A stretch of DNA of 64,000 bases from Elusimicrobiota bacterium. Its GTDB lineage: Bacteria > Elusimicrobiota > Elusimicrobia > F11. Each line of letters starts with the position of its first letter. Within the stretch, counting starts at the first letter, position 1. The notes below the pieces were generated by a model. That model saw only the letters and a program-made list of their open reading frames with translations, was not told where the DNA came from and did no database searches. Shown in pieces: positions 3,304 through 61,800 of the stretch. The position numbers and the translations under genes were made by a program. The stretch covers positions 178,050 to 242,049 of the forward strand of contig JAJVIP010000010.1 of assembly GCA_022072025.1 (NCBI GenBank). Direction: 5' to 3'.

Positions 3304-3447
3304 CAAGAAACATTTAATCAAGAAGAGATTAAAACTCGATTAAGAACCTGTAAAAGAGTTGTAAAAATTCTCCCCTTTTGTAACACTTCGGCCCATGGAT
3401 ACCGTCGTAAATAAAGCCTGGGTGACAAGTTTGCCCCTCCCAAAACC

Positions 3448-6842: not shown

Positions 6843-6857
6843 ATCGCACAGTCTTTT

Positions 6858-6931
6858 TCGAGTTTCGAGTTTGTGACTTGTAATTTTGAGTTTAAAAACT
6901 CTAAGTTTCAGATTTCAAACTCTAAACTCGA
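6858..6931 (+). promoter_or_regulatory. Long imperfect palindrome / GAGTTT direct repeats in the gcvT-gcvH spacer (possible attenuator, RNA stability or processing element)
   Basis: cgagtttcgagtttg ... caaactctaaactcg form a ~15-bp inverted repeat enclosing an inner gagttt-aaaa-actc hairpin; sits 26 nt upstream of the gcvH GTG start with AGGAGG RBS at 6946-6951. Confidence 0.35.
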
Positions 6932-6956
6932 AGCGACGTCTTAACAGGAGGACGAA

Positions 6957-7337
6957 GTGATCAACCCAGACCAATGTAGATTCGCTAAATCCCATGAGTG
7001 GTTAGCACCCGACGGCACCGTCGGCATATCGGACCATGCCCAAAAAGAAATCACCGATGTGGTGTTTGTGGAATTGCCCAAATTGGGAAAAGACGTAATA
7101 GCGGGAGAGGCGGTGGCCGTTGTGGAATCGGTCAAAGCGGCGTTTGATATTTACGCTCCCGTATCAGGAAAAATCGTGAAAGTGAACACGGAGGTCAGCA
7201 AAAATCCCGCCCTCGTAAACCAATCACCTTACGGCAAGGGCTGGCTTTTCACCATTGAAAAAATAAACGGAGAAGAGGAGAAAAAACTTATGGATCATCA
7301 ATCCTATCTCTCCTTCCTTTCTTCTGACGAGCACTAA
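6957..7337 (+). CDS. gcvH: Glycine cleavage system H protein (lipoyl carrier)
   Basis: 126 aa, GTG start with AGGAGG RBS; lipoyl-lysine motif VESVKAA; HEW motif near N-terminus. Confidence 0.9.
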
Positions 7338-37379: not shown

Positions 37380-37492
37380 CATTCAGCCTCATCAACCAAC
37401 ACCGACGGTTTTTGATGATTCAGGCGGGTTTTTTAGGGGTTTCTCTTATGACAAAAGGAATAAGTGTTTCAGACCTTTTGACATCGACGTTT

Positions 37493-37864
37493 TTAGCGGA
37501 GTTTTTCGTAACTTTTTTGACTTCCGTATTGGAGACATAAATTCCGGAAGGAATCTGATTCAATGTCGATGTTGTTTTCCTTGATCAGCGCCGCAATATC
37601 CAGCAAATCTTTTAATTCCCGTCTTTCCGGATTTTGTTTGATGGCATGCAACTTCATTGCGATAAGATGATCTAAGCTTGGGACAATAAAAGGCTCTCCT
37701 GAAATCGTGATTTCCTGGCCATCCCTGATGACGGCTTTTAAGGTTTCTTCATCAGTGAACAAGAAATCGATGTCTTTCGTCTCCCGAGAAAATTTGTAGT
37801 GATTCACAGCAAATCCGCCGATCAAAACACTCGGTAAATTTTTTTCACGAAAGAGCCGCCCCAA
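37493..37864 (-). CDS. Small nucleotidyltransferase-fold-like protein (AbiEii/MNT-like motif); candidate immunity or accessory gene of the giant ORF
   Basis: 123 aa, TTG start 22 nt after the giant-ORF stop, same strand; LIGGFAVNHYKFSRETKDIDFLF resembles the GG..A......R.T.DIDF nucleotidyltransferase motif. Confidence 0.45.
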   Translation of the reverse strand: MGRLFREKNLPSVLIGGFAVNHYKFSRETKDIDFLFTDEETLKAVIRDGQEITISGEPFIVPSLDHLIAMKLHAIKQNPERRELKDLLDIAALIKENNIDIESDSFRNLCLQYGSQKSYEKLR

Positions 37865-37886
37865 TGTTTTAACAACATCAAAAAAG

Positions 37887-40800
37887 TCATTTGTGCGAGT
37901 CTATATATTTGTGACTAACAAGGTGTTTGGCCCGTTTGCGGTCCCACAGGGGGGTGCGGCAGCGGAGCAGGGCCCACAACGAGAAAGGGCCGGAGAGGGC
38001 GGATGCTTCCTCTGTTCCACCCAATAAGTGAAGTTCACCGGTGAATTGCGCCCATCGGAGGCGCTCCAAGGATACCTGGGCCAGGTGAACGCGCCCGTCA
38101 GCCCCCCGCACCTCGAGCCGAATGGCGTCTTGATCAGAAGCGCCCACCCAGAAGAGGGTCGTTTCACCGGTCGCGAAATAAATGACACTGGGCAAATTCA
38201 ACGAAGTGCCATGGCTCTGGGCAAACTTGGTCATGATTTTTCGATGGGCCCAAACGTCTTCGGGCGTGGGCGCGAACCGAGCCAAACCTCTAAACGATTG
38301 AGGCCAGCCCCCATGGGTGTGGAAGGGAACGAAGGGCCCGGTCAACTTTTCAAAGTCAGAATCATGAACCACGACGCTCGTGGGAGAATTGAAAACAGGC
38401 GAAAAGAACACAATGCCATCGTCATTCCCGCGAAGAAGAATCGCTCCGGCTCTTTCATGTTCAAAGAGAGTCGATTTCTTCAGGGAAGGAGCAAGTGCAT
38501 AAGATCTAAATTCCTCCATTTCTACGGCTGGCCGGATAGGGGCGGGAATGAGCCCCCCTGCCCCCGCTCCCTCCCTCACCGTGACATCAGCTTTGGGCAA
38601 GGGATTTAAGGGGAAAGTGGACGTACCGGTGAGAGAGACGGCCACCCCATATTCTTGGTCTCCTCTCTTTTGGACACTCAAAAGGACCGGTGAATACTGC
38701 CCCTTGTTGTCCTGTCGAAGGGCCAACTGCCATTGGTTGTCATCACGCGGAGAATTTTTAAGCAAGGTGGTGATTTGCTCCCACAGGTTCGATCCCGGAA
38801 CCAGCGAGTCAATCAATTTGCTCAAAGCCGCGATTTTTCCTTCAGGCAAGGTCAGGATGGCTTTAAGAACTTGAACATCTTCGAGGGGAACCACCTCGCT
38901 TAACGAAACGTCGGACCGCACATAGGCTTGCCCCAATTCCATGGGCACCTTGGAGGCCAGTGAATCCATTGTAAGCGAGACGGTCGTTTCTTTCGCTCCC
39001 AACAAAATCTCTGTAAATGCCATCACACCAGAAAGAATGGGATGGACAATGTCGTCTATAGCGAATTCTTCTCTGGGATCTACATCGAAAAGAGTTTTGA
39101 ATTCGGCGCCTACCGACAACAAGGGAGTCACAGCAGCCTCATCAGCTCCTTCAAGCGCTTTCGTCACAAACGGAGTGGCGATCTTCAAAGCAAAGTCGGA
39201 CAATCGGGCTGACAAAGAAACCCCTCCTTTGGGCAAAACGGCGGTTGCGGCCAGACCGTCCAAGCGGAGCAGGCTGCCCGTTTTGATGTCGCCTCTTGTC
39301 CCAATCAAGGTGGCTTTTCCGGCGCCTTGGGCCCGCAACATCCCCACCCCCAGAGGCGTGGCCATCAAGGCGGTCCCTCTGAACCGTTTCACCGCGTCTG
39401 GCAAGACCAGGGTCCCTTTGTCCCGGTCAAAAGAGGCGAAATACAAATTCCCTCTCGCGGTCATGATCAAAACCCGTGTTCCATTATCCGGGCCTGCCAC
39501 CAAACTGGAACCCGCGAGACTTTGAAGAATGCTCGCGATGGCAGGTCGCCCGCCGGACAAACGAAATACCGGGAAAGAACGCCCGCCAATCTTCACGCGA
39601 CTGTCAAAGGTGGCGTTTACAGGGCCTCCAGGCCCCAACAACACAAAACGGTTCATCTGAAGATCTCCGAGATCAACCGAAGAATTGGTTAAAACAAAAC
39701 CATTCGCGGCAACATTTATTTCCACCTTCTTCAAAAAGAAACCTTCTTCCGCATTACCCTGAAAAACTCCATAAAAGGTTGGTTGACCTGTGGGACTTTC
39801 CGGCAATTGCGCGCCCAAAGTCATTCCCAAAACCATGGCCAACTCTCGGTCCTTGACTTGAAGACCTTGAGAGGTAACCTGGGCCGGCACCAAACGTCCT
39901 CCCACACGGAATGACACTTCACTTCCAACCCGATACACTTGAACTCTGAATTCACCTGGACGAACAGTGGCCTGTTGGACCGTCACCGTGTTGTTTCTTT
40001 CATCCACCTCGACAGATACGGGTTTATTGGGAACAAAATCCGGGGATTCAATTTGTAACAGTCCCTTGATTCTTTGGAAGAGAGAAGGAGATTGAATCCA
40101 AACAGGGTTTCCTGTGACTCTCGGACCGGAGGGTTCTTTTGAACGCGCTTTTTCTTTGGATTCTTTGGAAGGTTCAAGCCGACTCGTTTTGAGCGTTGTA
40201 AGAGACGAGGGTTTGCTGGACGTAAACAAGGGCCTACTCATAAGAAATGAGGCCAAGCCACTGACAATGGACGGACGGTCGCTTCCAAACAGAGGAATGA
40301 GGAATGAATCCAGCCCTCCCAAGAGGGGAACCGTCTCTCCAACCCCTTTAGGACTTGCCGCCTCTTCCCTTGCTCCGGCTGAGGAGGCCTCATCTCCAAC
40401 AAGGGCCGGGAAGAACGCCATCCCAAAAGGAGATGAAAGGGCCGCGGCCAAGGCCCCTGGCAAAAGAGAGGCGGACTCCTCTTTCGGTTTCTCGGCCTCT
40501 ACAGGTTCAGGCGCTCCGTCTTTTTTGGCGATGGGCCCTTCGGTTTTTCCTTCGCCTGAGGGCCGGACGCTGGAATCTCGACGGCGAGGTGTTTCGGGCC
40601 GTTCTTGCCGTTGGGGCTGCCTCAGCGTTTGGATCTCCACCCCTTCCCGCGTTCTCACGGCGCCCACCCGCACTTTTTCACCGCCGACGGGTCTCAACAT
40701 TTTTTGTATGGCTCCCGCGAGAACAACCGCATTTTTCCTGACCAACAGAAGGCCGTCTTTCCCCACCACCGCCTCCATCGTTACTCTCCGAACCTTGAAC

Positions 40801-43800
40801 TCCAGAACGGTTCCTTCTTTCAGGAATCCCTTTGGACCTTTTAACTCCTTGTTATCAGTGACCAATCGCAAACGTCCATCGCCGAACCTTAACTGAGACG
40901 ATCCAAAACGCACCGGAATGGTTTCTTTCACGAGAGGTTTGGGTTTCTTGTCGGTCAACCGGGCGTCGGGATGAATTTTTTCCACGATAGCCTTGCCTTC
41001 AAGCACTGAATCCCCCTCTTTGGGAAGTGATGCGGCTTCGGCTTTTTTGTCTTCAATGGTTTTGACCAAGTCTTCCACGAGAAAATCCGGGACCAAAGGC
41101 CCCACAATATCCAGACCCCGCGAAATCCACGATTTGGCCATTTCAAATATTTTGGGAACGATTTTTTCTTCGGGACTGAATTCTTTTTCCAGGCTTGTCA
41201 TTTCGTCCGTCGACAACCCCAGATCGGTGGAGATTTCTTTGATCGAATCCTCATCGCCCCGGATGAGCGCTTGAGCCAACATTTCGATTTCAACCTTCAC
41301 ACTCTCCGGGAGCGGTTCTCGACGCGCCTTTTCAACCAAAGAACGAACCTGGGCAATTTCTCTGGCGGTGGGGGCTCGAGGTGACGAGGCCCTCTCTGTT
41401 TTGGGCCCCGGCGCTTCTACGGATCCCGGAGCGGCCTCGGCCCCTTTTTCCTCGGGCTCAGGATCTTTAAAGAAACCAGTGATGTCGTCAATTAAGTCAC
41501 CAATCCAGTCCTTCAAGAGACGAGTCATCCTTCGAGCGGGACTGTTGGTCCATATAGGATTCCAAATCCCGCTCTGGAAAAGGCGGCCGCCCTCCGGTAA
41601 GCCCCAGGCAGCAATCGCGGGCAGATAATAATAGGGATCATGTGCGAAATCTTCGGGGTCCCGCGTTATATCTGGTGGCCTCCGTTCAATGCGTCCCCCT
41701 CCGTTGTTCACTGGGGTGTGATAACGGGAGATCATTTCGATATCCTGGTGTTCAACATTTTCCCCACCGCCAGCGCCCACCTGCCGATTCAAAATGGGAT
41801 TATAAAACCCAATGGGGGCCCCCAAGAACAACGATCCCACTCCCGAAGGACCGTAATACAGATCCGACAAACTCGCGCCGGGTAAATTTCCCTCATAGCG
41901 CCGGCGGCTCACATGTTTTACATAGGGAGTCATGACACCTGCCTGCGTGAGATTTGCTCGATAGTCCAGGGTGAGCGAGGCTCGATATTTTACAATGGCC
42001 TCATACAGCTGTTCCGTCATGGGAGTTGCCCCTCGCCTGTCGTCACCATTGATATCGGGGTCCTCATCTCCTTGGAGAGTGGGGTTCAGCGGATCGCCAA
42101 AGGGATCAAACAGGCGGCGGCTAAATACGGTTTCATGGGTGTAAACATAATAATCAGCCTCTTGGTTAAACCAATGGGCGAAGAGAGGAAAACCCCCGAT
42201 AGGATCGACGAGATTGGGATTTCCCGAAAGTTGATTGAGTGAGAAATGAACCACTTTTTGTCGTTGATCAATTTGTTTGAGAACGTCTCCGTCATATTTT
42301 CGGTCTTCCACTTTGAAGAGCTTAAAGTAATCTCCATAGAACCGAAATCCATTGCCCAAATTGATTTCCTGCCAGCCAATAAACTCCATGTGGTTTACTT
42401 TTTGGGTGAGGATCGGATCTCGGTTCGACGTGAGTTCCCATTTTTCCGTGTAATGATTGAGGATGGTTCCATCCCGATCGGCATTGCCCAGGGTGCCATA
42501 ATAGGGGGCGTTACCACCGGCCAAATCTCCACCAACGGAACGGACCAACTGAGACACCGATTGGAACGAACCCGGAGCGAACCCAAACCAAACCGAGGAC
42601 TGGAGCACCTTGACGTCAATACTGGCGGACCCGTCCATTCGGGTGAACAGAAGTCCTTGCGCGTCATATTCATATTTTCGGTCCACAACAGTGTAGACCG
42701 GCACCACATTGGCTCCGGGCCCCGCCACCCCAAAAAAGCCCACGCCTTCATATTTTTGTTCCCGCACATTTTCCATGCGGTAATGCTCGCCAAAATCCCG
42801 CACCATGGAGGTTTCGGTTTGGTTCCACCAATTGTTCTGTGAAAACAATTGGCCTGTGCGGCTCACACTAAAAGCAAAATCCCCTTGGCCGTTCGCGTTT
42901 CGGACATAGGTTGTTTCGGTCTCGCTGACAAGTCCATTCGAATTACTTTCACTGAACGCCTTCAACACCTGTTCGCCCACCCAACGGTAAATGCCGTACT
43001 GGTTGTAGCCTTTGGCGGTGGAAAAGTTACGGACATTGGGAAGCGTGACCGCCACGCCACCGCCGTCCGTTCCCGTTTCGTTGAGATACCAGGCGTTCCA
43101 GGTTCGACTTGTCCACCCGTCTGTGGCTCCGGTTTGACCGAACAAGTTGAAGGTGCGGTTTATGAAACTCACCGTCTCCGTATAGGAGGATTGATAATTG
43201 TTGAGGGACGCGCTGATGGTGTCGGTGCGAACGGCATCCATAAACCCAAACAAGCTGCGGTGATAGGTTTGGGACAACGACCGCGTCCAAGCGCCTTGGC
43301 TCGGGAACGCATCCCCGGCTGCGGCTCCGCCGGCGTTCACGGGAGGATTAAAAGTGTCTCGAATGGAGTTGGTAATTTTGTCGATGGAGTTCCCCACCGC
43401 GTTGTAACGGTACGCCGATACGCTTGAGCCGGTGGTGATCGACTCCACGCGCCCGGCCACCGTCATGATTTCGTTCGAGGTGCTGCTGTCCATATCCACC
43501 ACGCGTTTGCCCGCAATGTTAATGAAGGTCACAAAAGATCGTGAATTGCCCGTGTGGGAAACGGGCAGGCCCACCGGGCTGATTTCCTGTTTATCAAACA
43601 CCACATTGCTTTCTGTAAACCCATTGATGAACTCGGCGTTCCACGGGTTGTAAAAAAACCGCGACACACGGGTGGCCCGGGTTTGATCAATGGGATACCA
43701 ACCGGTCAAGTTCACGCTCGTGCTGTCGTTCACTTCTTCAAACACGTCGCGCATCAAATTCGTGTTGCCGATCACGCGACTCACGCGAAGCCCGTTGTTT

Positions 43801-46800
43801 TCGGTCGTGAGAACGCCATTTGAAAAACTGCGATCGTTGAATTCCGTGCGGTTCTCAAAATTCACATTAATGGGGAAATAGAGCCCCCGATCATTAAAGA
43901 CATCGTCAACCAGGGCCCCCATAAACCAGAGGCTGATCTCAGGCCCCCGCGGCAAGGAGGGATAGAGCCAAAGGGCGCTGGTCGCCGGTCCATCCCCCCA
44001 AACGACATAATCGGCCATATCCCATCCGACTGGAATTTGATCGGTGGTGTCATATTCATAGTCGACCCAGTCCGGCATATAGGTATGGTAATGACGCGTC
44101 ACCGCCCGGGACTGATTCCAATCTCCTCGAATGTTGGACCCGCTGGATTCAATAAGTGATTCATAAGGAACCGGGGCCCCAAAGGCAATAATGTATTGGG
44201 TAAGAACGGAATAGGCATTTGAGTACACCAGGCCGTCACCGCCGAACCCCGATGACGCCCCAAGCGACCCCGTGATACGTCCGCCCGAATCCCAGCTTTG
44301 CCACAGCGTGTCGAAATTGATGCTCCAGGAACCATCCACGCGCCGGCTTTCTGAACGGGTGGACGTCCCGATGGGACGGGCCTGTCCCGCATAAATACCG
44401 TAAGAAACAGTCGAAAAACTGGAATAGGTATTGCCCCAAAAATCGGTTCCAAACGAATTTCGATTTCCCCACACTTCCGCTAATTGGTCCCGCTCATCAT
44501 AAAAATAGCTGGTCAAACTGTAATTGCTCCCGTAATTGTTGTCCCGCCGCATAAAACCGCCTTGGCTGAGCACCGATATCACCTTGAACCTTCCATGCAG
44601 CAGGACATAACTGGTCCGTGAAAGCGCCTCCCACGATTGGTTCCCAGAACCGTCATTGGTGGCGCTGGTTCCATAGGCCACCTGATCCAAGAGACGCCCA
44701 TTCGTTTCGTAATCGGTATAGGTCAAGTTGGTGGAGGCGGTGATGGACCCGCTCATCGACCTGGACTCTGAATCCACACGGGTCTCAATCGACCTAGCCT
44801 GGCCGGCGATAATCCCAAACAAAGTGTGGGTCACGGCGCGCGAAATATTTCCCCATCCATCATTGGTTTTGCTGCTTCCCAACGAAAAAGCGAAATCCAA
44901 TAAATAATAAGCGCCCACTTTTTTATATCCATAGTGCATCGCGCTTTCCGACCAAGAGAGCGATTGATCCATCGCCGCGTGTAAATTGTTGCTCAACGAC
45001 AACGAAATCTTGAGCAATCCTCCCACCGCAATATAGGTGTCTTCTCCGATGCCACGATCGATGTTCCCATACCCGTCGTCGGATCTCGATTCACGGGTGC
45101 CCTTGCCCCCCTCAAGCACGCCGTCATCAGAATAGAGGGTTCGCGAAATATTCTTGGAGAGTTGTGAGGACCCGTCGAAAAAATTCCCTAAGGATAATGT
45201 GCCGCTGACCGTCTGCTTGGAGTTCCCAGCGATGTTCTCCGATTGGGACAGGGTCCAGGCCGTGCTTACGTTCTCATATCCGTCGTCAGAGGTGGAGGTG
45301 TTGCGGCTGCTGGAAGTGATGCGGCGGGGCAAAGCGCCTGAGGACATGAACCAATTTAAATTGACGCTGTCGGAAATGCTGGACGATCCATCGGTATTAA
45401 AGGATTCAACATGGGACTGGCTTAAAAATGTTTTGATGGATCCCGCCATCAATCGCAAGTCCACCGTCACCCTCCGGTCTTGCGTGTTGCCAAAGAGGTC
45501 AGTCGTGATCGAATCCCCTCCGGTTTGAACCGCTCCGGTCATATTGCCTTCCTCATCATAGTGATATTGGGTGCGCGCCCGATTTTTGGAAACCGTGCGG
45601 GTTCCGTCCGTGCTTTCACCCAGAGTCTCACTCAGTGAATAGTCCAACTTGACCAGCGTTTTGATCACCCGGTAAAAAGATTCGGTGTTGGTGTCACTCG
45701 TATTTCCGAAACCGTCATCGTTGCGAAGTCGGCTCCAACTGTGTTGGTCTTTTAAACGGCCCACCGCGTCATATTGATATTCGGTGAAATTTTCTCCGTT
45801 GAGTAACGTGAACGAACCATCGTTGTTGTCCGACTCGATGCCTGTGACCAACTGCTCGGTGAGCCGCGCTTCTTTTAAAACGATCTCAAAGTTTTGAATG
45901 AAAGATTGTTTCTGTTTGTTGCCATGGGCGTCTTCGGTGAGAGACCAGCCGGAACCCGTGGTGCTGAGCGCCGGGGCCACGGAAGGGTCAAACACACTGA
46001 TCACCTCCACCTCGCTTTCCTGGCGGTTTCCGTCAATCAATTGGGTTTTTGAGGAGGTCTTTCGAATTTCGGCTCTTTGTTGGCCGATGGTTTGCCACAC
46101 CACAGCCGAAAGCTGTTGCTCCACTTTGCTTTCACTCAAACTCCGCCAAGCGAAAGAATTTTGGGTCGATGTTTTATCGGTGAAGTTGTAGAGGAGCTGG
46201 CTTAAATCGTCGATTACGCGTTTATTTTTGGTTTGGCCCATCAAGGAGGTGATTTTCCCCGCCACCTCCACAAACGTTCCGCCCGCGTTGAGGATGGCGG
46301 TCACCGCGGGATCCAATTCAGGATCTCCGAGCAACCGGTCCTCGATAACTTTCAAGAACGCCCGGTTCGGTCCCGATTCTTGTTCGCGGAACAAGGCTTC
46401 CACCACTTGACCTTCGAAATCAAAGTTGAGAGTGTTCTTCCATTCGTCCAGGTCCGGCATGGCTTCGATGCGCTGGATCACAAAATCATAAAAATCGTCA
46501 TAGCTGGTGTTGTCCGCGTTGTGGGTGTCCAGCCAATCCTCCAGCGAGGTTTGAAAGTCGTTTCGGACTTTCAACACTTCCGAGAAATCCGGATTCCAAA
46601 GGGGTTGGGACAAATCATTTCTCAAGATGCCGCCCAATCTTTGTTCGGCCGGACTCAAGGGGTCCAAATCCGTGAATCGATCAAACACATCGATGACCGA
46701 CTGAACGGCCTGATCCATGTCGGCTTGATTGATGAATTCCCTTTTTTTGTACATCTCTCCGCTCTCCGATTCGCCGGTCGAAAGCGGGGCTTTTTCGGTC

Positions 46801-49800
46801 GGCCGACCCAACAGGTCGAAGGCTCCCTGCCCCAACACCGTGTTCACGGAACGATTGAAGGTATGGTCCGCTTGGAACACCGGAGTTTCATAGCGCCCTC
46901 CGCCCCAATCCGGGTTTTTGAGATCATTGTTGATGAGCGTGTTATCGGAACTGAAGGACCGCGTGATCACCTTGTCAAAAGCCATTTTTCCGGAGAAGCC
47001 CCAAATATCGCCTTGATGCGTGGTTTGACTGATGGACTTTTGGAACCGCGCTCCGTCAAAATTGAGATACCAGGAATCGATCACCGGCGCGTGAGCCGCA
47101 TGAGGTTGACCACTGGTCTCCTTCCAACTGTTTTCATAGGTGGTTCGACTGAAACCCCGGAACCAGGTGTCATTTTCTTGCACAAACGGAATTTCAAAGG
47201 AGCCCTCACCCCATTCACTGTCAATTCCAAGGGTTCCCGATTTCTTTTTATCGTTGCTCGAGAAAATCAGGGATCGGCTTTCCTTGAGCCGAACGATTCC
47301 CAACGAACGCCACAGGTCATCGCGGTTGTCTTGCTCCAATATCACTTTATTGAACCCTACGTTATGTCCTTCCCCAATGCCGCTGTCGCTCCAACTCCAT
47401 CCAGTGGAGCGTGGCGCCAATTCGGTGGGTCGGCCCATCACGCCGAATTCTTTGTGAGTGGAACCCACGTAATCGGTTTTGATCGAGGTTCGGGAACGGC
47501 TGTCATCAAAAGAACGAACCGGATCATCAAACGTGCCGCCGCCGAAAATAATCGTGGCGCCACGTTCGCCAAAAAGGGCGGCGTCAGCTTCAGTTCCCTG
47601 CTCCGTCCAATCGGAGCTGTAGGACCTTGATTCCGTGGATTCCAAAACCAAGCGGCCCAACGTGTTCCAGAAGAAAGGATCATTTTTTTGGGTGGACCGC
47701 GCCGCGGTGTAGGAAGTCAGTCCATCAAAACTCCAGTTCCAAGAAGACACCGTGGGCAACGCGTCGGCCACCAATTTTCCGGTGGCGGCGTCAAAGGAAC
47801 CCGCGTAGGTGGTGCGCGCATAACTGCGCGAAAGAGACCGATCGTCCTGCGCCGCGGGGTTCCCAAAGGTGCCGTTTCCTTGACGATCGCTCGACCAAGA
47901 CCGAACGGCGCTCTCCACCAATCGCGTGAGGCCGGTGTTTTTCCAAATGACATCGTCATTTTTCTGCGCGATCTCTGAAGCCGTGAACCCCGTGTGTCCG
48001 GTTTCACGGCCCGCGGGAATTCCATCAAATGACAGGGACTTTCCAAAGGCCGTGGGCGCCTTATCCGTCAAGCGCCCGGTCACGGGATTGTAGCTGTCCT
48101 TAAAGGAGGTGGTGAATTCCGACGTGCTCCAAGAATCCGTCACGTGCGCGACCGGATTCTCCAGCGTGCCCTCGCCATATCGTTTGGTTTTCCAGGCGTC
48201 CTCAAAGGTCCCCCCTTCTTTTCCATTCGAGGAGAAGGAGCGGGACGTGCTCTCCAACACAAGCGCCCGGCCCAAGTGGTATTGAACGGACCCGTTGTAT
48301 TTTTCAATTGAAATGGATTTGGTGAAGGTGTTGAAACCATCGAAACTTAAATTCTCGGATTCCAAGAGTCGCGGAGCGTAAGTTTGATCTTCGATATCGC
48401 CGCTTCCGCGCTCCACGCCGCCGAATTCATTCCAACGGGGCCGGTTGTCTTGCGCCCGATAACTGCGGGCATAACTGCCATCGGCATTCAATTTAAATGG
48501 ATCATCGTAACTGCCCTCACCTAAATCGTTCGATGAGAAACTTCGCGTGATGGACAAACCGTCCCGCTCCACGCCTTGGTTTTTCCAAATGTCTTTTGCC
48601 GACTCCACGCGAAATTCGGATTTGTTGTATCCAAGTGTATTGTTCGGCAAATATCCGTCATAGGAGAGACTGGTTCCCACCGTGACCGGAGCTTTATCGG
48701 TTGGACGTGAAGATTCCAGGTCATAAGCCCCCTCATACAGCCGTTTGCTTTCGCTCTTGTTCCAGCCTCCCGTCATTTGGACCGCGGGCCTGTCATAACT
48801 GCCCCCGCCATAAACCAACAGGCTGCTGTAATCGATCACATCTCCATGAGAATCCTTCACAAGAATGGGTTTTTCAAACAATGCTTGCGCCTCCCAAGTC
48901 GACGCGGCGTTATCCGAGGTCCAATTGTGCGAGGTGACTTCCAAGGCCAACGCTTTTCCAAAGCGGTTCCACAAAACAGAATTAAATTTCGTGCTGGATT
49001 CGGACCGCGAATAATTGGCCACCCCGTCAAAACTCCAACTGCCGCTGTGGTTCACAGGAACACCGTCGGCCTTTCGATTGATGGCGCCGATGACCGTTCG
49101 ATCCCCGTCGGAAATCACCTGATCCCCATCCACATAACTGTTGGAATAGTCGGTGACGGACCAGAACCGCGTCGACTCGCCCGTCTCCATTTCCACCGGC
49201 GATTCAAAACGGCCGCGCCCTTCTTTGTCGGAGCTATAGCCGATTGACACTTCTATGGTTGAACGCAAAAGCCCCGTGAGTTCCCAAATTTTTTGGTTGT
49301 GGGCTCTGTATATCTCACTTTTGGAATAACCCACATTGATGCCAGGAAGAGCCAAGCCATCAAAACTCAAACTCCATCCTTCTGTCCATGGCGTGTTGGT
49401 CCCGATGGCCTTGGAGGTCGTGAGGTCATAACTGTTGGTGTAATGGGTCACCAAATGGTTTTTGCTCCAACTGCCGTCTTTTTGCGGCGTGGGATTGGAA
49501 AAATTCCCCAAACCAAAAGCGGGCACCCGGTTCATGTCCACGAACCCTCCGACGGCGTCTCGAACGACCAAGGTTCGACCCAAGGCTTGATCCGCCTCCC
49601 ACGGAGCCGCAGAATCATCGCTCGAATAACTGTCCACCACGCTTTCCGAAAGCAATGTTTTGCCAAACCGGTTCCAGATGTCCACGTTAAATTTCTGGGT
49701 AATGTCGGTTCGTGTGTATTGATGGAAACCGTCAAAACTCCAACTGCCGCCTTTGACCACCGGCACGCCCTGGGCGGACCGGTTAATGGCGCCCAGATTT

Positions 49801-52800
49801 TTTCGCCATTGGGAAGGCGCCACTTGAACCCCATCAATATAACTCGAGCTGTAGTCGGTGACCGTCCACGATCTGAATTGACTGCCGTCGGCGGAAGAGA
49901 GGGAGTTCAAATCATGGTAATCGCCCTCTCCCGCGGCATTGGAGTTGAAGCTCAAAGACACCGACGAATCCAACCGCAAAAGACCGGCCGCGTCCCACAG
50001 ATGAGAGTTGTAGGTTTGATATATGAGACTCTTGGAATATCCCAATCCCAAATGGAGAAGAGCGGTTCCGTCAAAACTCAAACTGAACCCTTCCGCCCAG
50101 GGTGTTGAAAGTCCCGTCGGAAGAGTCGTGAGCGGATCATAGCTGTCTTGATAATGGGTGATCATTTCGCTTTTGGTCCAGCTCTCATCGCCCTGTTGGA
50201 GCGGCGACTCAAAGGATCCGCCACCGATCACCGCGATGTTGTTGTAATCAATTAAACGTCCTTGCGAATCCCGCCCCAATAGAGGCACGCCGAACTCACG
50301 ACCCGCCTGCCAGGTGTGCGCCTGATCATCAGAGGAGAAACTTCGAACCACCGAACGCGCGAGCAATGTTTTTCCGAATGTGATCCAGAAGGTCGGATCA
50401 AAAATTTGTTCGTTTTCAGACACGGTGAAATGTCCTTGGCCGTCATCGCTCCAGCCGCCCCCTTTGACCACCGGAACCGCGGCCGCCGTTCGGTTGACCG
50501 CGCCCGCTTTGGGGCCTGACTTGATCCACGCATTTTCATAACTCGTCACATTCCAGGAACGAGACCGGGTGTCATCGATGCCCCGATGCGGCTCCATCAG
50601 CGAACCCGCCTGACCCTCATCGGAGCTGTGGCTAAAATTAAAAGAGGCCTTGAGCCTCATTTGACCGGTGAGTTCCCAAATATCGTCATGGAACACTTGG
50701 TTGATGTCGGTTCGCGTATATCCAAGCCCGAGTCCCGGCAAAGAGAGCCCGTCAAAACTCAAGGACCATCCTGTTGAATGGGGCGCCACCGCGGTGGGCC
50801 GCGCGCTGTTTAAATCGTAACTGTCGTGGTAGCGGGTCGTGATTTCGCTTTTGTTCCAACTCAAATCGCTTTGAGAAAGCGGCGCGTCAAAGGTCCCTTT
50901 TCCAAACACGATGGTGGAACTCAAATCCAAAGACTGCCCAAAGGCGTCTCGAACCAAAACCGGCGATCCCGACAAGGAGGCCACATCCCAGAGACTCGGC
51001 AATTCATCACTGGAATAACTTCGGGAAACGGTCTCCAACATCAAGGTCTTGCCATGATTGATCCAGAATCTGGGATCGAATGTTTGCGCGGTATCGGTTC
51101 GGGTGAAACGCCCAAAACCGTCGTCACTCCAAGAGCCGCTCGACCCCACAGGCGTTCCCGCTTCAGTTCGGTTCACCGCGCCCGCCTTGGGCCCTCCAGT
51201 CACCCACGCATTGTCGTAAAGCAGAACGCTCCAAGAGCGGGATTGTTGACGGTCAATCCAAGGAACGGGTTGTTCAAAGTTGCCGGCTCCAAATTCATTG
51301 GAGGTCCAATTAAAATTCGCGTTCGCCTGAGTGCGCAACAAGCCCGTGGACGCCCAAAGCGCGCTGTTGTAGGTGGTATAACTCACTCCATGCGTGTGAC
51401 CGGTTCCCGGCATGAGACTGAGGCCGTCGAAGGAATGGGTTTCTCCTTCGCTCCACGGCGTGTGTTCAAAGGCGCCATCAGAAAAGGGTTTTGAGGTGGT
51501 TTCATCATAGGCGGTTTCGTAATGGGTGGTGATGCGGCTGCCATTCCAACTGTCATCGCCTTGAGCCACCGCTCCAAACAAGTTCGCGGGATTCACCTGG
51601 CCGCGGACCTCCATTTCCGTTTCAATTTTGATCTCTCCCGCGGCATCGCGGAACCGGATGACCCTCTCAGGGCTAAATTCCGCGCCCGCCCGCCAGAGAA
51701 CTTTTTTATCTTCGGTGGTTCCCGATGTTGTTTCAGTGAGGAACGCCACCGTCTTCCCAAAATTTTTCCATACGGCCTTATTGAAATCGGTTCGGGTCAA
51801 ACTTCGCGTGAACGTTTTAAACCCATCGAATGAAAACCCCCAGGACCAACTTTGCGGAACCCCCGAATCGGTTCGATTGACGGCGCCCATTTCTCGTCCG
51901 GAAGTTACCCAGGCATTGGCATAACTGGTGATGTTCCACGCCGCGTTGTAACTGTTGTCCGCGGCGCGAACGGGATTCTCAAGACTCCCATCTCCGGCCG
52001 CGTTCGACGTCCACGTTTTGCTGATGGATTGTTCGGTGCGCAGCAGGCCCCCCAAGGCCCAAAGCAGGGAATTGTACGTAGTATAGATGAGGCCATGGGT
52101 GTGGCCTTGGCCCGGCGCGAAACTGAGCCCGTCAAAATTGTGGGTTTCACCCTCTGACCAAGGGGTGTGTTCAAAGGAACCATCCTCATAGGGACGGCTG
52201 GTCGCTTCATCATAGGCCGTTTCATAATGCGTGGTCACGCGGCTGCCATTCCAACTCTCATCGGTCCCCGCCGCCGCGCCAAACAAATGGTCATTATCGA
52301 CGGGACCGCGAACCGTCATTTCGGTTTCGTTTTTGATTTGGCCATCGGCCTCCCGAATGAGCACTTGAAGCCCGGGATCAAACGCGGCTCCGACCCGCCA
52401 CGTATAAGGAGCCACCACGCCGTTCTCTCCCCGCGTGGAGGCTGAGATCGACACGCTTTGAGCCGCCACGGTTTTCCCAAATTGGGCCCATATATTTTTA
52501 TTAAAGGTTGTTTCAGTGAATGTTCGACTGTAGGAGCGGATCCCGTCAAACAAAGCGCTCCACGACACACTGGTGGGGGTGCCCAGCGCGCTGCGGTTGA
52601 CGGCGCCCAATTGGGATCCTTCGGTGATCCAGGCTTCGCTGAAATTGGTGACGCTCCAATTCATATTGCTGCTCCCGTCCAATTGAAAGACAGGATTGTC
52701 GATGGATCCCTCCCCCACCGCGTTGGACGACCAAGATTTATTGACGGACGTGAACGTTCGAAGCAGTCCCGCCCCTTTCCAAATGTCGTTGTTGTAGGTG

Positions 52801-55800
52801 GTATAGAGCACACCGTGCGTATGGCCTTGACCGGGGATGGGGCTCAAGCCGTCAAAATTGTGGCTCTCCCCTTCGCTCCAAGGGGTTCGTTCAAAGGACC
52901 CCTCTTTCCATGGTTGAGAGGTGCTTTCATCATAGGCCGTTTCGTAATGGGTCACCACGCGGCTGCCATTCCAACTGCCGTCGCTCTGCGGAAGTGCCTG
53001 GAATAAATTCGGATTGGCGCTCTCATCGATGGGCCCGCGGACCCGCATGCGAGACTCGTCATAGATATCGCCAACCGCGTCGCGGAGACGAACCCGAATA
53101 TCCGGATCAAATTGAGCCCCGACATTCCATTCATAGGGGTCTGCGATTCCATTGTCTCCGGCGGTGGTTCCGCTGACGGTTTCACTTCTCAATAAAACCG
53201 TTTTTCCAAACTGACTCCAGATGTTGTCGTTGAAAAGGCTGGTGGTGAGGCTGCGCGTATAGGTACGCAGACCGTCATAGGACACGCTCCATGAAAATCC
53301 CTTCGGGGTTCCCTGGCCGCTGCGGTTGACCGCTCCCACGTTATCGCCTTGCGTCACCCACGCGTCTTTGTAATTCGTCACACTCCAGGAAAGCGTGGTG
53401 GTGTTGTCCGTTTGGAAAATGGGCTCATTGATATTTCCCTCGCCCGCCGCATTGGACGACCAGGTTTTGCTCACATTGGAATCGGTGCGCAGCGTCGCGG
53501 CCCACTTCCATATTTCCGTGTTGTAAGTTGTGTAGATGAGACCATGGGTGTGGCCTTGACCTGGAACAAGAGAAAGACCATCGAAGTTATGACTCTCTCC
53601 TTCCGACCAAGGCGTTTGATCGAAACGGCCCTCTTGATAATGCCGGCTGGTGGCCTCATCATAGGCCGTTTCGTAATGAGTCACCACACGACTGCCGTTC
53701 CAACTGCCGTCTCCTTGCGGCAAGGCCTGATACAGATGGGGGGTCGCGCTGGTATCAATGGGGCCTTTAACACGGAGCAGGGTTTCATCGGTGAGGTTGC
53801 CTCGCGAGTCACGGGTTTTGAGGGTGAGGCCCTCTCCCAAACTCTGGGCCACATTCCACTGCCAATCGTTGATACGGCCTTGGTTGCCCTGCGTGGAACT
53901 TGACGTGCTTTCGGTTTGGCGAATCACCGTTTTTCCAAACCGGCTCCAAATGTTGTCGTTGAAATAACTGTGGGTGAGGGTGCGTGTGTAAGACCGCAAG
54001 CCGTCATAAGAAGCGCTCCACGTCGCGCCGGTGGGAGTTCCGCTCCCAGACCGGTTCACCGCGCCAGCGGCATCGCCAGAGGTGATCCAGGCATCTTTGA
54101 AATTCGTCACACTCCAAGCCACAGAGGTGCTGTTATCTTTCTGGGCGAGGGGATACTCAATATCGCCATGCCCCGCCGCGTTGGACGACCAGGTTTTGCT
54201 CAATGAGACATAGGTTCTCAGCACGGCCGCAAGCGCCCAGATCTCCGAATTATAGGAGGAGTGGGTGGTTCCATGCGTGTGGCCTTGTCCGGGAATGGAA
54301 CTGAGCCCATCAAAAGAATGGGTTTCGCCTTCGCTCCAAGGGGTGTGGAAATCCGCATTTTGGTAGCCGGCATCTCCTTCCTTCCACGGCCGCGAGGTGG
54401 CGGGGTTATAGGCCGTTTCATAATGCGTCACCACCCGGCTGCCGTTCCAACTGCCATCTCCTTGGGCCACCGCGTCAAACAAATTCCGGGAATCCACCGC
54501 CCCACGAACCGTCATCACCGTTTCATCGATCACGTTCCCATCGGCGTCTCGCGTTTTAATGAATACGCCGGGAGAAAACTTCCCGCCGACCGCCCAGGAA
54601 CTCGCCTCATCCCGGCTGCTGGAAGAAACAGATTCAGACGTTCGCGCCACAGTTTTTCCAAACTTTTTCCAAATCTCGGAATTAAATTTCGTTTCGGATT
54701 CACCTCGCGTGAATGTTTTAAACCCATCGTAATTAAAACTCCACGCCCAGCTTTGGGGAGTGGCCTCATCCGACCGATTGACGGCCCCGGCTTTGGCACC
54801 CGAGGTGATCCACGCGTTTCCATAATTGGTCACACTCCAGCTCAAATTCATGCTGTTGTCCTCTTGATAAATGGGGCGCTCCAGGCTTCCCGTCGATCCG
54901 TCCGCATGAGTATTCGTGGCATTCGAACTCCAACTCTTCGATACCGAATTGTCCGTTCGTAAAATCCCCGCCAACCGCCAAACCTCTTGGTTGTAGGTGG
55001 TCGATACAACCCCGTGGGTATGGCCCTGTCCTTCCAGCAGGGAAAGACCATCATAACTGTGCGTTTCTCCCACGCTCCACGGGGTATGATATTCAGCGCT
55101 TTCATACCCCACGTCGCCTCTCTGCCAAGGACGGGACGTCTCTTCGTTATAAGCGGTTTGGTAATAGGTGGTCACGCGGCTTCCATTCCAACTCTCATCG
55201 CCCTGGGCCACCGCCCCGTACATATTGTTTTCGTTCACCGTGCCGCGCACTTCCATAACGGTTTCATTGATGATTCTTCCATTGGCATCGCGCGTATAAA
55301 TGGACACATCCGGATCAAACTGACGCCCCGCGTTCCAATCATGGGTTTTGTTTTCGCTGGTGGCCGAGGTGGTTTCGGTTTTCAACAAAACGGTTTTTCC
55401 AAACTTCTTCCAGAGGTTGTTGTTGAATTCGGTTTTGGATTCGCTGCGCGTAAAGGTTCTAAAACCGTCGTAGGAAAAGCCCCACGACCAACCTTGGGGT
55501 GTGGCATTGTCTTCTCTGTTGACCGCGCCTGCCTTGTCACCGCTCGTCACCCAAGCGTTTTTGTAATTGGTGACGCTCCAGCTCAGGTTCGTGCTGTTGT
55601 CTATTTGCGCGAGCGGGTTCGTGATGCTCCCCGAGGTCCCGTCAGAAAGTGTGTTGGTGGCGTTCGAACTCCAACTTTTGCTCACAGAATTTTCTGTCCG
55701 CAACAGGCCCGCCCACCGCCAAACGTCTTGATTATACGTGGTGAAGATCATGCCATGGGTGTGGCCTTGACCCTCTTTGAGCAAGGGGGAGGTGTCGATG

Positions 55801-58800
55801 GCGCCAAGACCATCATAGCTGTGGGTTTCCCCTTCGCTCCAAGGTGTGCTCTCAGGAGAACCGTCTTGATGCGGGCGACTGGTTTCTTCATCATAAGCGG
55901 TTTCGTAATGCGTGACGATGCGGCTTCCGTTCCAGCTTTCATCGCCCTGAGCCACCGCATTAAATAGATTTCGCGAATCCAAGGCGCCCCGAACCTGCAT
56001 CCATGTTTCATCCCGAATAACACCATTCGCGTCTCTTGTCTTAATCGTGACATCGGGGTTGGACAATTCGCCCACTTTCCATTGGTGTGCCTCATCCCGG
56101 CTTGTGCCCGATTCGGTTTCGGTTCTGAACACCACCGTTTTTCCAAAACGCTTCCAGAGGGCGCGGTTGAATTCACTGGTTGATTGACTTCGCGTGTAAG
56201 TCTTAAAACCGTCGAAGGAGAACCCCCACGACCAACTGGTGGGAACCGCGTCATCGGTTCGGTTCACCGCGCCCGCTTTGGCTCCGCTCAATATCCAGGC
56301 GTTTCGATAATGGGTGACGCTCCAACTTAAGTTTGTGCTGTTGTCAGATTGATGAAGCGGGTTCGTGATGCTGCCGATGCCGTCCAACGGATGGCTGTTA
56401 TTGGCGGTGGAACTCCAACTCTTGCTTACGGAATGGTCGGTTCTTAGCAATCCCGCGTTTTTCCAAATTTCTTGATTGAAACTCGTAAAGACCACCCCAT
56501 GGCTATGCCCTTGTCCCTCCACCACCGAGAGTCCATCGTAGCTGTGGGTTTCGCCTTCGCTCCACGGCGTGTGGTGTTCCAAACCTTGGAAACCAAGGTC
56601 GCTCTCCTGCCAGGGGCGGGACGTCTCCACGTTATAAGCGGTTCGGTAGTGAGTGGTCACCCGGCTCCCATTCCAACTGCCATCGCCCTGAGAAACCGCG
56701 CCATACAAATTGTTTTCATCGCGGTCGGAATCCAACCAACCTCTCACTTGCATCAGGGTTTCATCTCGAATCACACCGTCTTGATCGCGTGTGCGAATGG
56801 AAAGGGGAAGACCAGCCGCCTGCGCCACGTTCCAGGTTCTTTCTTCATTCGCGCTTGTGCCCGAGGTCGTTTCAGTCTGGTAAATAACCGTTTTTCCAAA
56901 TCTCTTCCATATCTCTTTGTTGAAATCCGTTTTGGATTCGCTGCGCGTAAAGGTTCTAAACCCATCAAAGGAGAAACCCCACGACCAGCTTTGGGGCGTC
57001 GCGTCGTCCAATCGGCTCACGGCGCCGGCCTTGTCACCGCTTGTCACCCAAGCCTTGCCGTAATGGGTCACACTCCAACTTAAAGAAGTGCTGTTGTCCG
57101 ATTGATGGAGCGGATTGGTGATGCTGCCGATGCCGTCCAACGGATGGCTGTTGTCGGCGGTGGAGCTCCAACTCTTGCTCACGGAATTGTCGGTTCTTAG
57201 CAGCCCAGCGTTCTTCCAGATCTCTCGGTTGAATGTGGTGAAGGTAACCCCATGGCTATGGCCTTGGCCTTCCACCACCGAGAGTCCATCATAACTGTGG
57301 GTTTCCCCTTCACTCCACGGCGTGTGTTCAAAGGAACCGTCTTGGTGCGGGCGGCTCGTTTCAAGGTCGTAAGCGGTTTCGTAATGCGTGACGATGCGGC
57401 TTCCGTTCCAACTCTCGTCGCCTTGGGAAACCGCGCGGAACTTGTTGTTTTCGCTCACGTCACGGTCCAACAACCCGCGAACCCGCAGGCGCGTCTCATC
57501 TCGTATCACGCCTTCGTGGTCACGCGTGCGAACCGTCACGCCGGAACCGAACAATTCTCCGGTATCCCAATCTCTTTCTTCATCCCGGCTGGTGCCCGAT
57601 TCGGTTTCGGTTCTGAACACCACCGTTTTTCCAAATTTTTTCCAAATCTCCTGGTTGAATTCTGTTTTGGTTTCGCTGCGGGTGGTGGTTTTGAAACCAT
57701 CAAAGGAGAATCCCCACGACCAGCTTTGGGGCGTCGCCTCGTCCAGTCGATTCACCGCGCCAGCCTTGTCACCGCTTGTCACCCAGGCATTTCTGTAATT
57801 GGTCACACTCCAATTTAAATTGGTGCTGTTATCGGATTGGTGAAGCGGGTTTGTGATGCTGCCCACCCCATCCACAGAATGAATATTTGTCGCGGTGGAA
57901 CTCCAGCTTTTGCTCACAGAATTGTCGGTTCGCAGCAGGCCCGCGTTTTTCCAGACCTCCTGATTGTAAGTGGTGAAAACAACGCCATGGGTATGACCTT
58001 GGCCTTCCACCACCGAGAGTCCATCATAGCTGTGGGTTTCCCCTTCGCTCCACGGCGTGTGTTCGAAGGAACCGTCTTGGTGGGGGCGGCTCGTTTCCAA
58101 GTCGTAAGCGGTTTCGTAATGCGTGACGACGCGGCTGCCGTTCCAACTGCCATCGCCTTGTGAAACCGCGTCATATAAATTGTTTTCGTTTCGGTCCTCA
58201 TCGAGAAGTCCCTGGACCCGCATCGTGGTTTCGTCGATAAGCCGACCGTCTTTGTCACGCACCCGAATGATCACATCGGGATCAAAAGCGCGACCCACGT
58301 CCCAATTGCGTTCTCCTGGCAAACTGGTGCCGGAGGTGGTTTCCGTTTTGAGCACCACCGTTTTTCCAAATTTCTTCCAAATCTCCGAGTTGAATTCTGT
58401 TTTGGATTCGCTGCGCGTATAGGATTTGAAACCGTCAAAGGAGAAACCCCAGGACAAACTGACAGGCGTGGCGTCATCCGCGCGGTTGACAGCGCCCGCT
58501 TTGTCGCCGCTCGTGACCCAGGCATTTCGGTAATTCGTCACGCTCCAATTTAAAGAAGTGCTGTTGTCGAGTTGGTGGAGCGGATTGCCAATGCCGCCTT
58601 GGGTTCCGTCTGGAAGCGTGTTGGTGGCATTCGAACTCCAACTCTTGCTCACGGAATTGTCGGTTCGCAGAAGTCCCGACAAACGCCACACCTCTTGATT
58701 GTAAGAGGTAAAGGTGACCCCATGCGTGTGACCTTGGGCTTCTTTGAGTTGCGGTGAGGTCTCAATGGCTCCCAGGCCGTCAAAGCTGTGAGTTTCGCCC

Positions 58801-61800
58801 TCACTCCAGGGCGTGTGATATTCGCTGTCCACAAATCCCCGTTCACCACTCTGCCAGGGCCGGGACGTCTCGCTGTTGTACGCCCGCTCGTAGTGGGTGG
58901 TGACGCGGCTTCCATTCCAACTATCGTCCCCTTGAGAGACCGCGTCGAACATATGATCTTCACCCACGTCTTCGTCGATGAGCCCTCGAACAAGCATTTG
59001 GGTCTCGTCCATAATGTTTCCATTGTTATCTCGAATTTTAATGTTCACGCCCGGGTCCAACGCGTCCCCAACATTCCATTGTCTCTGCGCGTCGCGGCTG
59101 GTGGCCGACGTGCTTTCAGAACGCGACAACACGGTCTTCCCAAATCTTTTCCAAATCTCTTGGTTGAATTCGCTTTTGGAGGTGCTTCGCGTGTAGGTTT
59201 TAAATCCATCAAAAGAGAAACCCCAAGACAGGCTCACCGGCGTCGCGTCATCCGACCGGTTGACGGCGCCGGCCTTGTTGCCGCTCGTGACCCAGGCGTT
59301 TCGGTAATTCGTCACGCTCCAGTTCAAGTTCGTGCTGTTATCGGATTGGTGAAGCGGGTTCGTGATGCTGCCGAGGCCATCCTCCGAATGAATATTTGTG
59401 GCGGTGGAACTCCAACTCTTGCTCACGGAGTTTTCGGTTCGAAGCAACGCCGCTTGTTTCCATATCTCTTGGTTGTAGGTGGTGAACACCACGCCATGCG
59501 TGTGGCCTTGACCTTGAAGCGCGCTTAGCCCGTCAAAGTTGTGGGTTTCGCCTTCACTCCACGGCGTGTGATTTTCCTGAGACACAAAACCCGCCTCGGT
59601 CTCGCGCCACAAATGGGAAGTGGTTTCATTGTAAGCCGTCTCATAATGAGTGGTCACACGGCTGCCGTTCCAGCTATCGTCTCCTTGAGCCACCGCCCCA
59701 AACATGTTGTTGGGATCGATGGCGCCTCGCACGCGCATCACCGTTTCATCCCGTATCACGCCTTCTTTGTCGCGCGTTCTAATTGTGACGTCCGGAGTGG
59801 CCTTTGACCCCACCGACCATTCGGCCTCTTGATTGGCGCTGCTTCCCGATGTGCTGGTGGTTTGTCGAAGCACGGTTTTTCCAAATTTCTTCCAAATTTC
59901 ATTGTTGAATTGGGTGGTGGACTCGCTTCGCGTATACGTTTTGATCCCGTCAAAGGAAAAACCCCATGACCAACCTTGAGGGGTGGCATCGTCTGTGCGG
60001 TTCACCGCGCCCGCTTTGTCGCCACTGGTGATCCACGCCTTCTGATAGTTCGTCACACTCCAACTCAAATTCGTGCTGTTGTCGGACTGAGCGATGGGGT
60101 TCTCCAGGCTGCCCGCTGTTCCATTCGCGAGCGTGTTCGCGGCATTCGAACTCCAACTCTTGTTCACAGAATTTTCAGTTCGAAGGAGCCCCGCCAACCG
60201 CCACACGTCTTGGTTGTATGTGGTGAAAATGACGCCATGCGTGTGGCCTTGACCCTCCACCACGGAGAGCCCATCATAACTGTGCGTTTCACCTTCGCTC
60301 CATGGCGTGTGTTCAAAGGTTCCGTCTTGATAGGGCTTGGCGGTAGCCGGGTCATAGGCATATTCATAATGGGTCACCACACGGCTGCGGTTCCAACTCT
60401 CATCGCCTTGCGCCAAAGCCCCATATTTATTGGAGGGATTGCGCCGGCCATACACCAAGGCCACGCTGAAATCAACCGTGTCGCCGCTTTCATTTCGGAC
60501 CGCCAGCCGTCGTCCAAACTCGTCGGAAAGAACCCAAGCCGTTTCTTGGTCGTCGGTGGTGGCGCTTGTGACGGTGGTTTTCAACACCACGGTTCGTCCA
60601 AACCGATTCCAAATTTCCTTGTTGTATTCGGTGTCGGTGGAGGAGCGGGTCATGGTTCTAAATCCATCAAAGGACCAGGCGAGACTTTTGGTTTTGGGCA
60701 GGCCCGCTTCAGTGCGAATGATGGACCCGATACCCTCTCCGGCCGGCGGCATAAACCGAACCCCGTCGTAATAACTCTTCGAATAGTCGGTGACCGAAAG
60801 ACTGCGTTGTTGGCTGCCGTCCAAGGCCGCCACCGGCGCCTCATAACTTCCCTCGCCATTGGCATTGGAGCTAAAACCCTGGTTGATCACGGTCTCGAGT
60901 TTCAGGCCTCCCGTCTTCTGCCAAATGTTCGCGTTGAAAGTTTGGAATATCGTGCTCTTGGAATAGCCCAACTCAAGACCTGGAAGGCTCAAGCCGTCAA
61001 AATTCAGCGACCATCCCGTTGCCCACGGCGCGACTGAAGTGGGCCTCGTGGTCTCTTCGTCATAACTGTCTTTGTAGTGGGTGATCAGTTCAGACTTGTT
61101 CCAACTCTCATCTCCTTGAACAAAAGGCGAATCAAACGATCCCCGCCCATAAACCCTCAAGGAACTGAGATCAAACGTACTCCCGTTCTCCCGTCGAACG
61201 CTGAGGGCGCGACCAAACCCTTGGACGGCATCGGTCGTATCCCAAAGGGCGGGATCATTGGAACTGGAATAACTGCGCGAGATGCTTTTCTCCAAAGACG
61301 TTCGTCCAAATTTATTCCAAATGGCTTGATTGAACTCTTGGGTGGTATCGCTGCGGGTATAGGAACGGAAACCATCGAAAGACAAACTGCCACCCAAGGT
61401 TTTGGGAAGTCCTTGTTGGGACCTGACCAACGCGCCGATCCCTTCGCCCGCCGGCGGCACGGTGTTCACACCATCATAATAGGAGGAAGTGTAATCGCTC
61501 ACCGACCACGACCGTGTGGTGCTGCCGTCAGAAGCCGGCTCAGGCGCATCAAAAGTTCCCAGCGTCCCGGTTGAATCGGTGCTCCAAGAAAAATTGGCGG
61601 AGGTGGCCAATTTGGTTTGGCCCGTGGCCGCCCAGATGTGTTGGTTAAAGGATTGGTAAAACGAACTGGCCGTGGTGCCTTGGTTGAGGCCGGGCACCGC
61701 GGTTCCGTCGAAAGACAATGAACGCCCTGTCATAAACGGAGCGAAACTTAATATTGGCGCGCCGTTTTGGGTGTTGTAAGAACGTGAAAAATCGGTGGTC

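Follow-up and report, generated by a model that had tools for sequence, protein, structure and literature searches.

Does a small ORF that lies directly behind a very large gene encode the immunity protein of a toxin? The question is raised by a 64,000-nucleotide stretch of contig JAJVIP010000010.1 from an Elusimicrobiota bacterium, here called the window, in which a giant ORF is followed by a small one that was initially read, from the sequence alone, as a candidate for the cognate immunity gene, or for an accessory gene, belonging to a polymorphic-toxin locus. The arrangement is defined by two features:

37493..37864, minus strand: small ORF of 123 codons with a TTG start, from the ORF list
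37887..37889, minus strand: TGA that ends the giant ORF, overlapping the presumed ancestral ATG of the small ORF

The TTG at 37864 lies exactly 22 nt past the TGA of the giant ORF (37889-37887), both on the minus strand, and a scan found no terminator-like site between the two, for which 22 nt leave little room in any case. The original prediction was therefore accurate in its description of a 123-aa ORF 22 nt past the giant stop, on the same strand and with no intervening terminator. Terminator and promoter scans around the small ORF returned nothing informative.

Over 12,834 nt that include the small ORF, a Logan assembly of run SRR10609165 agrees with the GenBank sequence at 100% identity, and the features of the ORF are thus not an artefact of one assembler; the two assemblies were probably built from the same reads. 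Only one database protein is near-identical, a 104-aa 'hypothetical protein' from an Elusimicrobia MAG that represents the same locus with a later start called.

The small ORF has a GC content of 0.414. The giant gene stands at 0.539, the window at 0.513 and the genes of the family to which the ORF is assigned below at a mean of 0.348; the low value of the ORF is consistent with horizontal acquisition. Within the region from 33 to 42 kb the lowest GC is found at positions 37400-37800 (0.41-0.43), the 3' end of the giant gene standing at 0.52-0.57, and the compositional boundary falls at the stop codon of the giant gene. The neighbours of the small ORF are the giant gene and, on the other side, a convergent gene at 36123-37379 (plus strand) for a 418-aa AAA_14 + DUF4143 ATPase, which matches the PADLOC candidate defence family PDC-S01 (E=6e-107). 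This ATPase gene is in turn neighboured by a 524-aa ORF at 34536-36110 (minus strand) that has a TTG start and encodes several hydrophobic segments.

A family of MenT1/AbiEii-like nucleotidyltransferases

Judged from its sequence, the small ORF is a member of a family of MenT1/AbiEii-like nucleotidyltransferases (DUF1814 superfamily) of about 178 aa. It matches the Pfam AbiEii profile (PF08843) in two stretches with 43.2 bits (gathering cut-off 22.5; E=5.9e-11), gives weaker Pfam matches to NTP_transf_5, DUF2204 and DUF6036, and has low-scoring matches to many PADLOC AbiEii models. The segment LIGGFAVNHYKFSRETKDIDFLF, in which an AbiEii/MNT-type motif had been suspected, is a true nucleotidyltransferase motif I (GGFAVNHYKFSRETKDID; T29, D31 and D33) that satisfies the pattern G[GS]...R-x-[ST]-x-D-x-D, and the suspicion proved right in the form of AbiEii. 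Besides motif I (GGFAV..SRETKDID) the ORF retains motif III (AMKLHA, with K71) and motif IV (KDLLD, with D86/D89).

Among 5.8 billion proteins searched, 198 homologues of the small ORF were retrieved. Self-hit aside, the proteins among the matches listed (120) are 170-212 aa long, most of them 178-181 aa, with an identity of no more than 45%. A genome scan found 335 genomic relatives. Omnitrophota MAGs account for most of them, and the rest include members from Elusimicrobia, Ratteibacteria, Margulisbacteria and Saganbacteria, among other groups. Most family members start at a common methionine and have a length of 176-190 aa, about 178 aa being typical. The small ORF shares 40-45% identity with family members (BLASTP), reaching 58% with one of them (P0010) on shared columns, and is matched by the family HMM with E=1.7e-53 in two overlapping pieces that correspond to HMM positions 6-48 and 83-174. 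At 123 aa from its TTG it falls short of the full length of its own ~178-aa family, and it is, as had been remarked at the outset, too short for a full enzyme.

An AlphaFold model of an intact family member (P0003), built on a 25-sequence alignment, has a pLDDT of 94. The best solved match to this model in Foldseek is MenT1 (E=3.5e-9, TM 0.66, ~20% identity), followed by ANT(2'')-Ia, LnuA and MenT3, and the family profile also finds MenT1 among the sequences of solved structures (E=4.7e-8). MenT1 is the Rv0078A protein of Mycobacterium tuberculosis and is paired with MenA1, or Rv0078B (PDB 8AN4, 8AN5 and 8RR5; PMC10435456, PMC11375011). It adds nucleotides to the 3' ends of tRNA and so blocks translation, and is neutralised by the 68-aa antitoxin MenA1 (PMC10435456). 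Four MenT1 residues are important by experiment, T39, D41, K137 and D152 (PMC10435456, PMC11375011). These align with the family-invariant residues T38, D40, K123 and D138, and with T29, D31, K71 and D86 of the small ORF, which has kept all four.

Defects of the window copy

Three parts of the locus depart from the intact family:

37757..37774, minus strand: deletion junction, GAC ATC GAT TTC TTG TTC = D-I-D-F-L-F, from the alignments and the overlapping HMM pieces
37865..37900, minus strand: upstream homology TRTNDFFDVVKT in the frame of the ORF with no start codon, from three-frame translation
37380..37492, minus strand: spacer of 113 nt from the stop of the remnant to the stop of the convergent AAA_14/DUF4143 gene

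In intact members motif I reads R-x-T-x-D-[IV]-D-F-L-I-T and is followed after 43 residues by motif II, D-x-D-F-M-F-V-D, whereas the window copy reads SRETKDIDFL/FTDEETL, with the slash marking the junction. The junction thus merges motif I (DxDFLIT) with motif II (DxDFMFV), the 43 codons (129 nt) between them having gone in frame. When mapped onto the P0003 model, the lost residues (approximately 45-87) comprise helix α3 (47-59) and the strands β3 (62-67), β4 (71-76) and β5 (83-88), and the remnant lacks the complete bi-lobed fold with its N-lobe β-sheet. Also within the deletion falls the motif-II aspartate, D85, which is invariant in the family and aligns with the Asp of 'VVDLLF' in MenT1. 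The distance between the two DxDF sites is exactly 43 codons in 62 of the 73 intact genes. In register the sites agree at 13 of 21 nt, the longest exact runs reaching 12 nt, and from these repeats we infer that slippage or a microhomology deletion is a plausible origin of the junction.

The second defect concerns the start of the gene. Family homology reaches past the TTG, upstream as far as an in-frame TAG at 37903-37901, and the HMM match begins four residues ahead of the TTG. The TGA of the giant ORF shares its position, as ATGA, with an ATG at 37890-37888 that is out of frame with the remnant by one T. An in-silico repair in which one T is added to the T6 run at 37885-37880 gives MTFFDVVKTLGRLF..., and the repaired N-terminus, MTFFDVVKTLGRLFREKNLP-SVLIGG, has exactly the 20 residues that the family carries ahead of xVLIGG. 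The frameshift is deduced from the register alone; the T6 run is the same in the independent assembly.

The third defect is the loss of a partner gene that accompanies intact members of the family. The 113-nt spacer holds no trace of it, and a partner HMM run against six frames of the whole window gave a best match with E=1.2 that lies outside the spacer, leaving the remnant with no adjacent cognate antitoxin gene. The AAA_14/DUF4143 ATPase gene abuts the site at which the partner would be expected.

Outside the deletion the remnant keeps 18 of 18 conserved columns (≥90%), among them all four MenT catalytic residues, and its reading frame is still open. In all likelihood the remnant is enzymatically inactive.

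The intact two-gene module

The partner is a gene for a protein of about 57 aa that directly follows the nucleotidyltransferase gene, on the same strand, in 85 of 87 loci with an intact family member; in the other two the contigs end 1 nt and 27 nt past the nucleotidyltransferase gene. It is 174 nt long, encodes the consensus MKKLNLPIIKEKLPEAKVLSMDDYLKFVQLNLKYTVDKKAYRKWKKLLAVNVPFSLK with a core motif LSMDDYLKFV, and in most loci begins between -4 and +13 nt from the nucleotidyltransferase stop. Examples among the loci L001-L087 are L001:5001-5721, L004:5001-5717 and L008:3676-4400. The partner belongs to no family in Pfam, NCBIfam or PADLOC, and a profile search of the PDB gave only unrelated proteins at best E=0.32, with no detectable similarity to MenA1 in 8AN5. 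The module of nucleotidyltransferase and ~57-aa protein appears to be undescribed in the databases that were searched.

The genomic contexts of the module are scattered. Its upstream neighbours fall into 66 unrelated clusters in 80 loci, 26 of them on the opposite strand, and the contexts run from glycosyltransferase and polyketide clusters through to a defence-like island. Two MAGs (JAUYCX01 and JADHYN01) carry two copies of the family gene each. Scattered contexts combined with a conserved partner are the signature of a self-contained, mobile pair of the toxin-antitoxin type. By analogy with MenT1 we infer that the intact enzyme would be a growth-arresting toxin that extends tRNA acceptor ends, and that the small partner would act as its antitoxin. 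Several hundred genomes carry the module of MenT1-like nucleotidyltransferase and 57-aa protein; they belong to Omnitrophota and to candidate phyla that neighbour it.

The defence-like island is found in L001 (1-10537), L002 and L003, which represent one Omnitrophota-type lineage and have the intact module inside it. The island also encodes a 282-aa AbiEii, a pair of AbiEi_2 and NTP_transf_8 proteins, an AEP-TOTE/DEAD helicase and a PLDc_2 protein.

Other short forms of the family

A search of 1.84 billion representative sequences found four further proteins, P0151, P0199, P0231 and P0196, that lack roughly the same segment as the window copy, and a fifth, P0181, with a different internal deletion. 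P0151 is encoded at L089:1925-2353 and in L090, and P0231 at L091:694-1134. A large gene lies upstream of the one for P0151, and its product is not related to the giant protein of the window (best E=0.5). Three of the four have a small gene at the 3' end, which is a partner homologue in the two for which the DNA is readable; loss of the segment is thus not always accompanied by loss of the module.

The junctions differ from one form to the next (DIDFL/FTD, DVDLLL/VD, DIDFLIG/DA and SRTT/EEE), and P0231 loses motif I instead. In a MAFFT alignment with 124 shared columns the nearest relatives of each short form are full-length proteins. Other short forms rank between 40th and 233rd of 234, with the exception of the window ORF, which is third for P0231 at 41% identity. 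In a neighbour-joining tree of 235 sequences the window copy and the four others that lack the segment each have a full-length sister, and the clades that descend from the most recent common ancestors of short forms hold 35-198 sequences. A dedicated search with P0151, the best-sampled short form, gave ten closest relatives that are all 185-211 aa long. A conserved short subfamily, which had been considered, was rejected on the nearest-neighbour ranks, the tree and the P0151 search.

As placed by alignment and tree, the short forms are deletions that arose independently and did not last long in evolution, rather than a variant under maintenance. At least four other lineages lost a similar segment independently, each as a singleton nested among intact genes, and this suggests a recurrent deletion hotspot that inactivates the enzyme. 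In the intact family the recurrent site lies between the two catalytic motifs that repeat each other.

The giant ORF and its C-terminus

The giant ORF extends over 37887..63959 on the minus strand and is open to the window edge, with at least 8690 codons. It contains 13 copies of a repeat marked by GH[ST]HG with a period of ~235-258 aa at residues ~1240-4190, flanked by more degenerate copies, and a later region (~6060-7290) with four YxYDxxG motifs and two DPxG motifs (DPxG near 7250-7290). The whole protein has only sub-threshold or zero-stretch matches in Pfam (DUF7188, DUF3903 and RHS_repeat), that to RHS_repeat scoring 19.6 bits against a cut-off of 22.

For the last 699 aa no match was found in Pfam, NCBIfam or PADLOC, for the last 449 aa no homologue at E<=1e-3 in 5.8 billion proteins and for the last 299 aa no PDB sequence match at E<=10, while a single-sequence AF2 model of the last 238 aa has a pLDDT of 36.7 and is unusable. 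A JAB/MPN-like 'HTH...PTPED' motif in the C-terminus is a guess by eye. The C-terminus might conceivably adopt an unknown toxin fold, but nothing links such a fold to the small ORF. These searches lend no support to the idea that the giant gene encodes a polymorphic toxin.

Probable origin and fate of the remnant

The ORF probably stems from a MenT1-like toxin gene that was acquired horizontally, of which it represents a remnant in decay, and its position by the giant gene is probably incidental; an apt annotation should be that of a truncated or pseudogenised AbiEii/MenT-family nucleotidyltransferase. The two-gene module would have been acquired horizontally and have inserted just behind the giant gene, at its 3' end. 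In a sequence of events whose order is conjectural, a 129-nt in-frame deletion between the two DxDF motifs removed α3, β3-β5 and the motif-II Asp, the loss of 1 nt in the T run presumably disconnected the original ATG, and the partner gene was lost. The loss of an antitoxin is tolerable only when the toxin is dead, which fits the combination of a damaged enzyme gene with a missing partner. The 18 retained columns and the open frame point to a recent decay or to some constraint that persists; the comparison offered no intact module from a sister genome and no close relative by which the decay could be dated.

The reading with which the locus was introduced, in which the ORF is an immunity or accessory protein that is co-transcribed and translationally coupled with the giant gene and neutralises its C-terminal toxin, now seems extremely improbable. 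It draws on the shared strand, the 22-nt gap and the missing terminator, and on the YxYDxxG, DPxG and sub-threshold RHS_repeat features of the giant protein that loosely recall Rhs proteins. Against it, the ORF is homologous to the toxins AbiEii and MenT1 and matches no immunity family in a profile check, it is a damaged copy with a foreign GC content, and the C-terminus of the giant protein has neither a database match nor a homologue. Its relatives have a conserved partner of their own and are never found beside a relative of the giant protein, none of which was detected by tblastn in the 87 loci that carry them; nor is there in these loci any conserved linkage with a C-terminal domain of the giant type. 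Conservation beside unrelated loci, which the original prediction itself had named as evidence against an immunity role, is what the 66 upstream clusters display. A small ORF right after a giant gene is no evidence for a toxin/immunity pair. An error of assembly or sequencing, or a minority allele that hides an intact 178-codon gene in the true genome, is highly improbable as well. The source is a metagenome-assembled genome, and a deletion between short repeats and a start defect in a homopolymer are both classic error sites; however, the second assembler gave an identical sequence over 12.8 kb, the repeats, with their exact runs of at most 12 nt, are far shorter than assembly k-mers, and no local error explains why the partner gene is missing too.

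That the ORF encodes a functional short MenT-like protein, non-catalytic or differently catalytic, which might for instance bind tRNA or partner proteins or act as a decoy for them, is unlikely, even if every conserved residue outside the deletion is intact, the frame is open and the same segment has been lost repeatedly, in three cases with the partner-position gene in place. The deletion takes three strands of the core sheet together with the invariant motif-II Asp, the remnant has neither a canonical start at the family position nor a partner, and the short forms are singletons of polyphyletic origin whose junctions differ and none of which has diverged short relatives. Very unlikely is the related proposal that the remnant is alive as the product of a 'detox switch', in which the repeated excision of α3-β5 (in at least five lineages) would leave a non-catalytic decoy or regulator that keeps its tRNA or partner contacts, was captured behind the giant gene, is translationally coupled to it at the ATGA and possibly undergoes slippage in the T run. 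A decaying toxin-gene remnant remains the preferred explanation for the ORF.

Comparison with known systems

The immunity genes of Rhs/CDI-type systems resemble the window ORF in position only, as a small same-strand ORF right after a very large gene, and differ in that the ORF has no immunity-family homology, no linkage to a large gene and no identifiable toxin domain upstream of it.

The MNT antitoxins of HEPN-MNT (type VII) systems were considered and rejected, there being no NTP_transf_2 or Polbeta-type Pfam match and no adjacent HEPN gene.

Among nucleotidyltransferases at large, the best Pfam score of intact members is to NTP_transf_5 (PF14907; 46.7 bits, cut-off 31.2), for which the remnant stays below the cut-off (29.4 vs 31.2); the weaker DUF2204 match of the remnant is to PF09970. 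The intact family is also similar in fold to the antibiotic nucleotidyltransferases ANT(2'')-Ia and LnuA (E~1e-6). There is no hint of antibiotic resistance in the genomic context, and the obligate small partner and the scattered contexts argue for a module of the toxin-antitoxin type rather than an antibiotic nucleotidyltransferase.

AbiEii is the toxin of AbiE systems, which are type IV toxin-antitoxin and abortive-infection systems. With AbiEii, MenT3 and MenT4 the family has in common a motif I of the Pol-β type and the motifs III and IV that are specific to DUF1814, and MenT3 is matched in fold with E~1e-5. Unlike the family, these proteins are ~250-300 aa long and are preceded by the gene of a COG5340 (AbiEi/MenA3) wHTH antitoxin; no COG5340/AbiEi-type antitoxin gene is found at the remnant or adjoining the intact family members.

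The closest comparison is with MenT1/MenA1, in which the enzyme likewise has a size of ~180-196 aa and the partner is likewise very short (68 aa in MenA1, ~57 aa in the family). The order of the genes is reversed: menA1 precedes menT (15 of 21 cases; PMC10435456), and the family partner follows the nucleotidyltransferase gene in 85 of 85 informative loci. The remnant differs further from MenT1/MenA1 in that motif II is gone, along with three β-strands, the proper start and the partner. A toxin-first module of the DUF1814 superfamily, PygAT, is known from one mention found in a literature search (PMC11375011). The intact module seems to be an uncharacterised relative of MenAT1 that places the toxin gene first and has a short partner of a new kind, and its family is a reasonable system in which to study the control of MenT-type toxins outside the mycobacteria.
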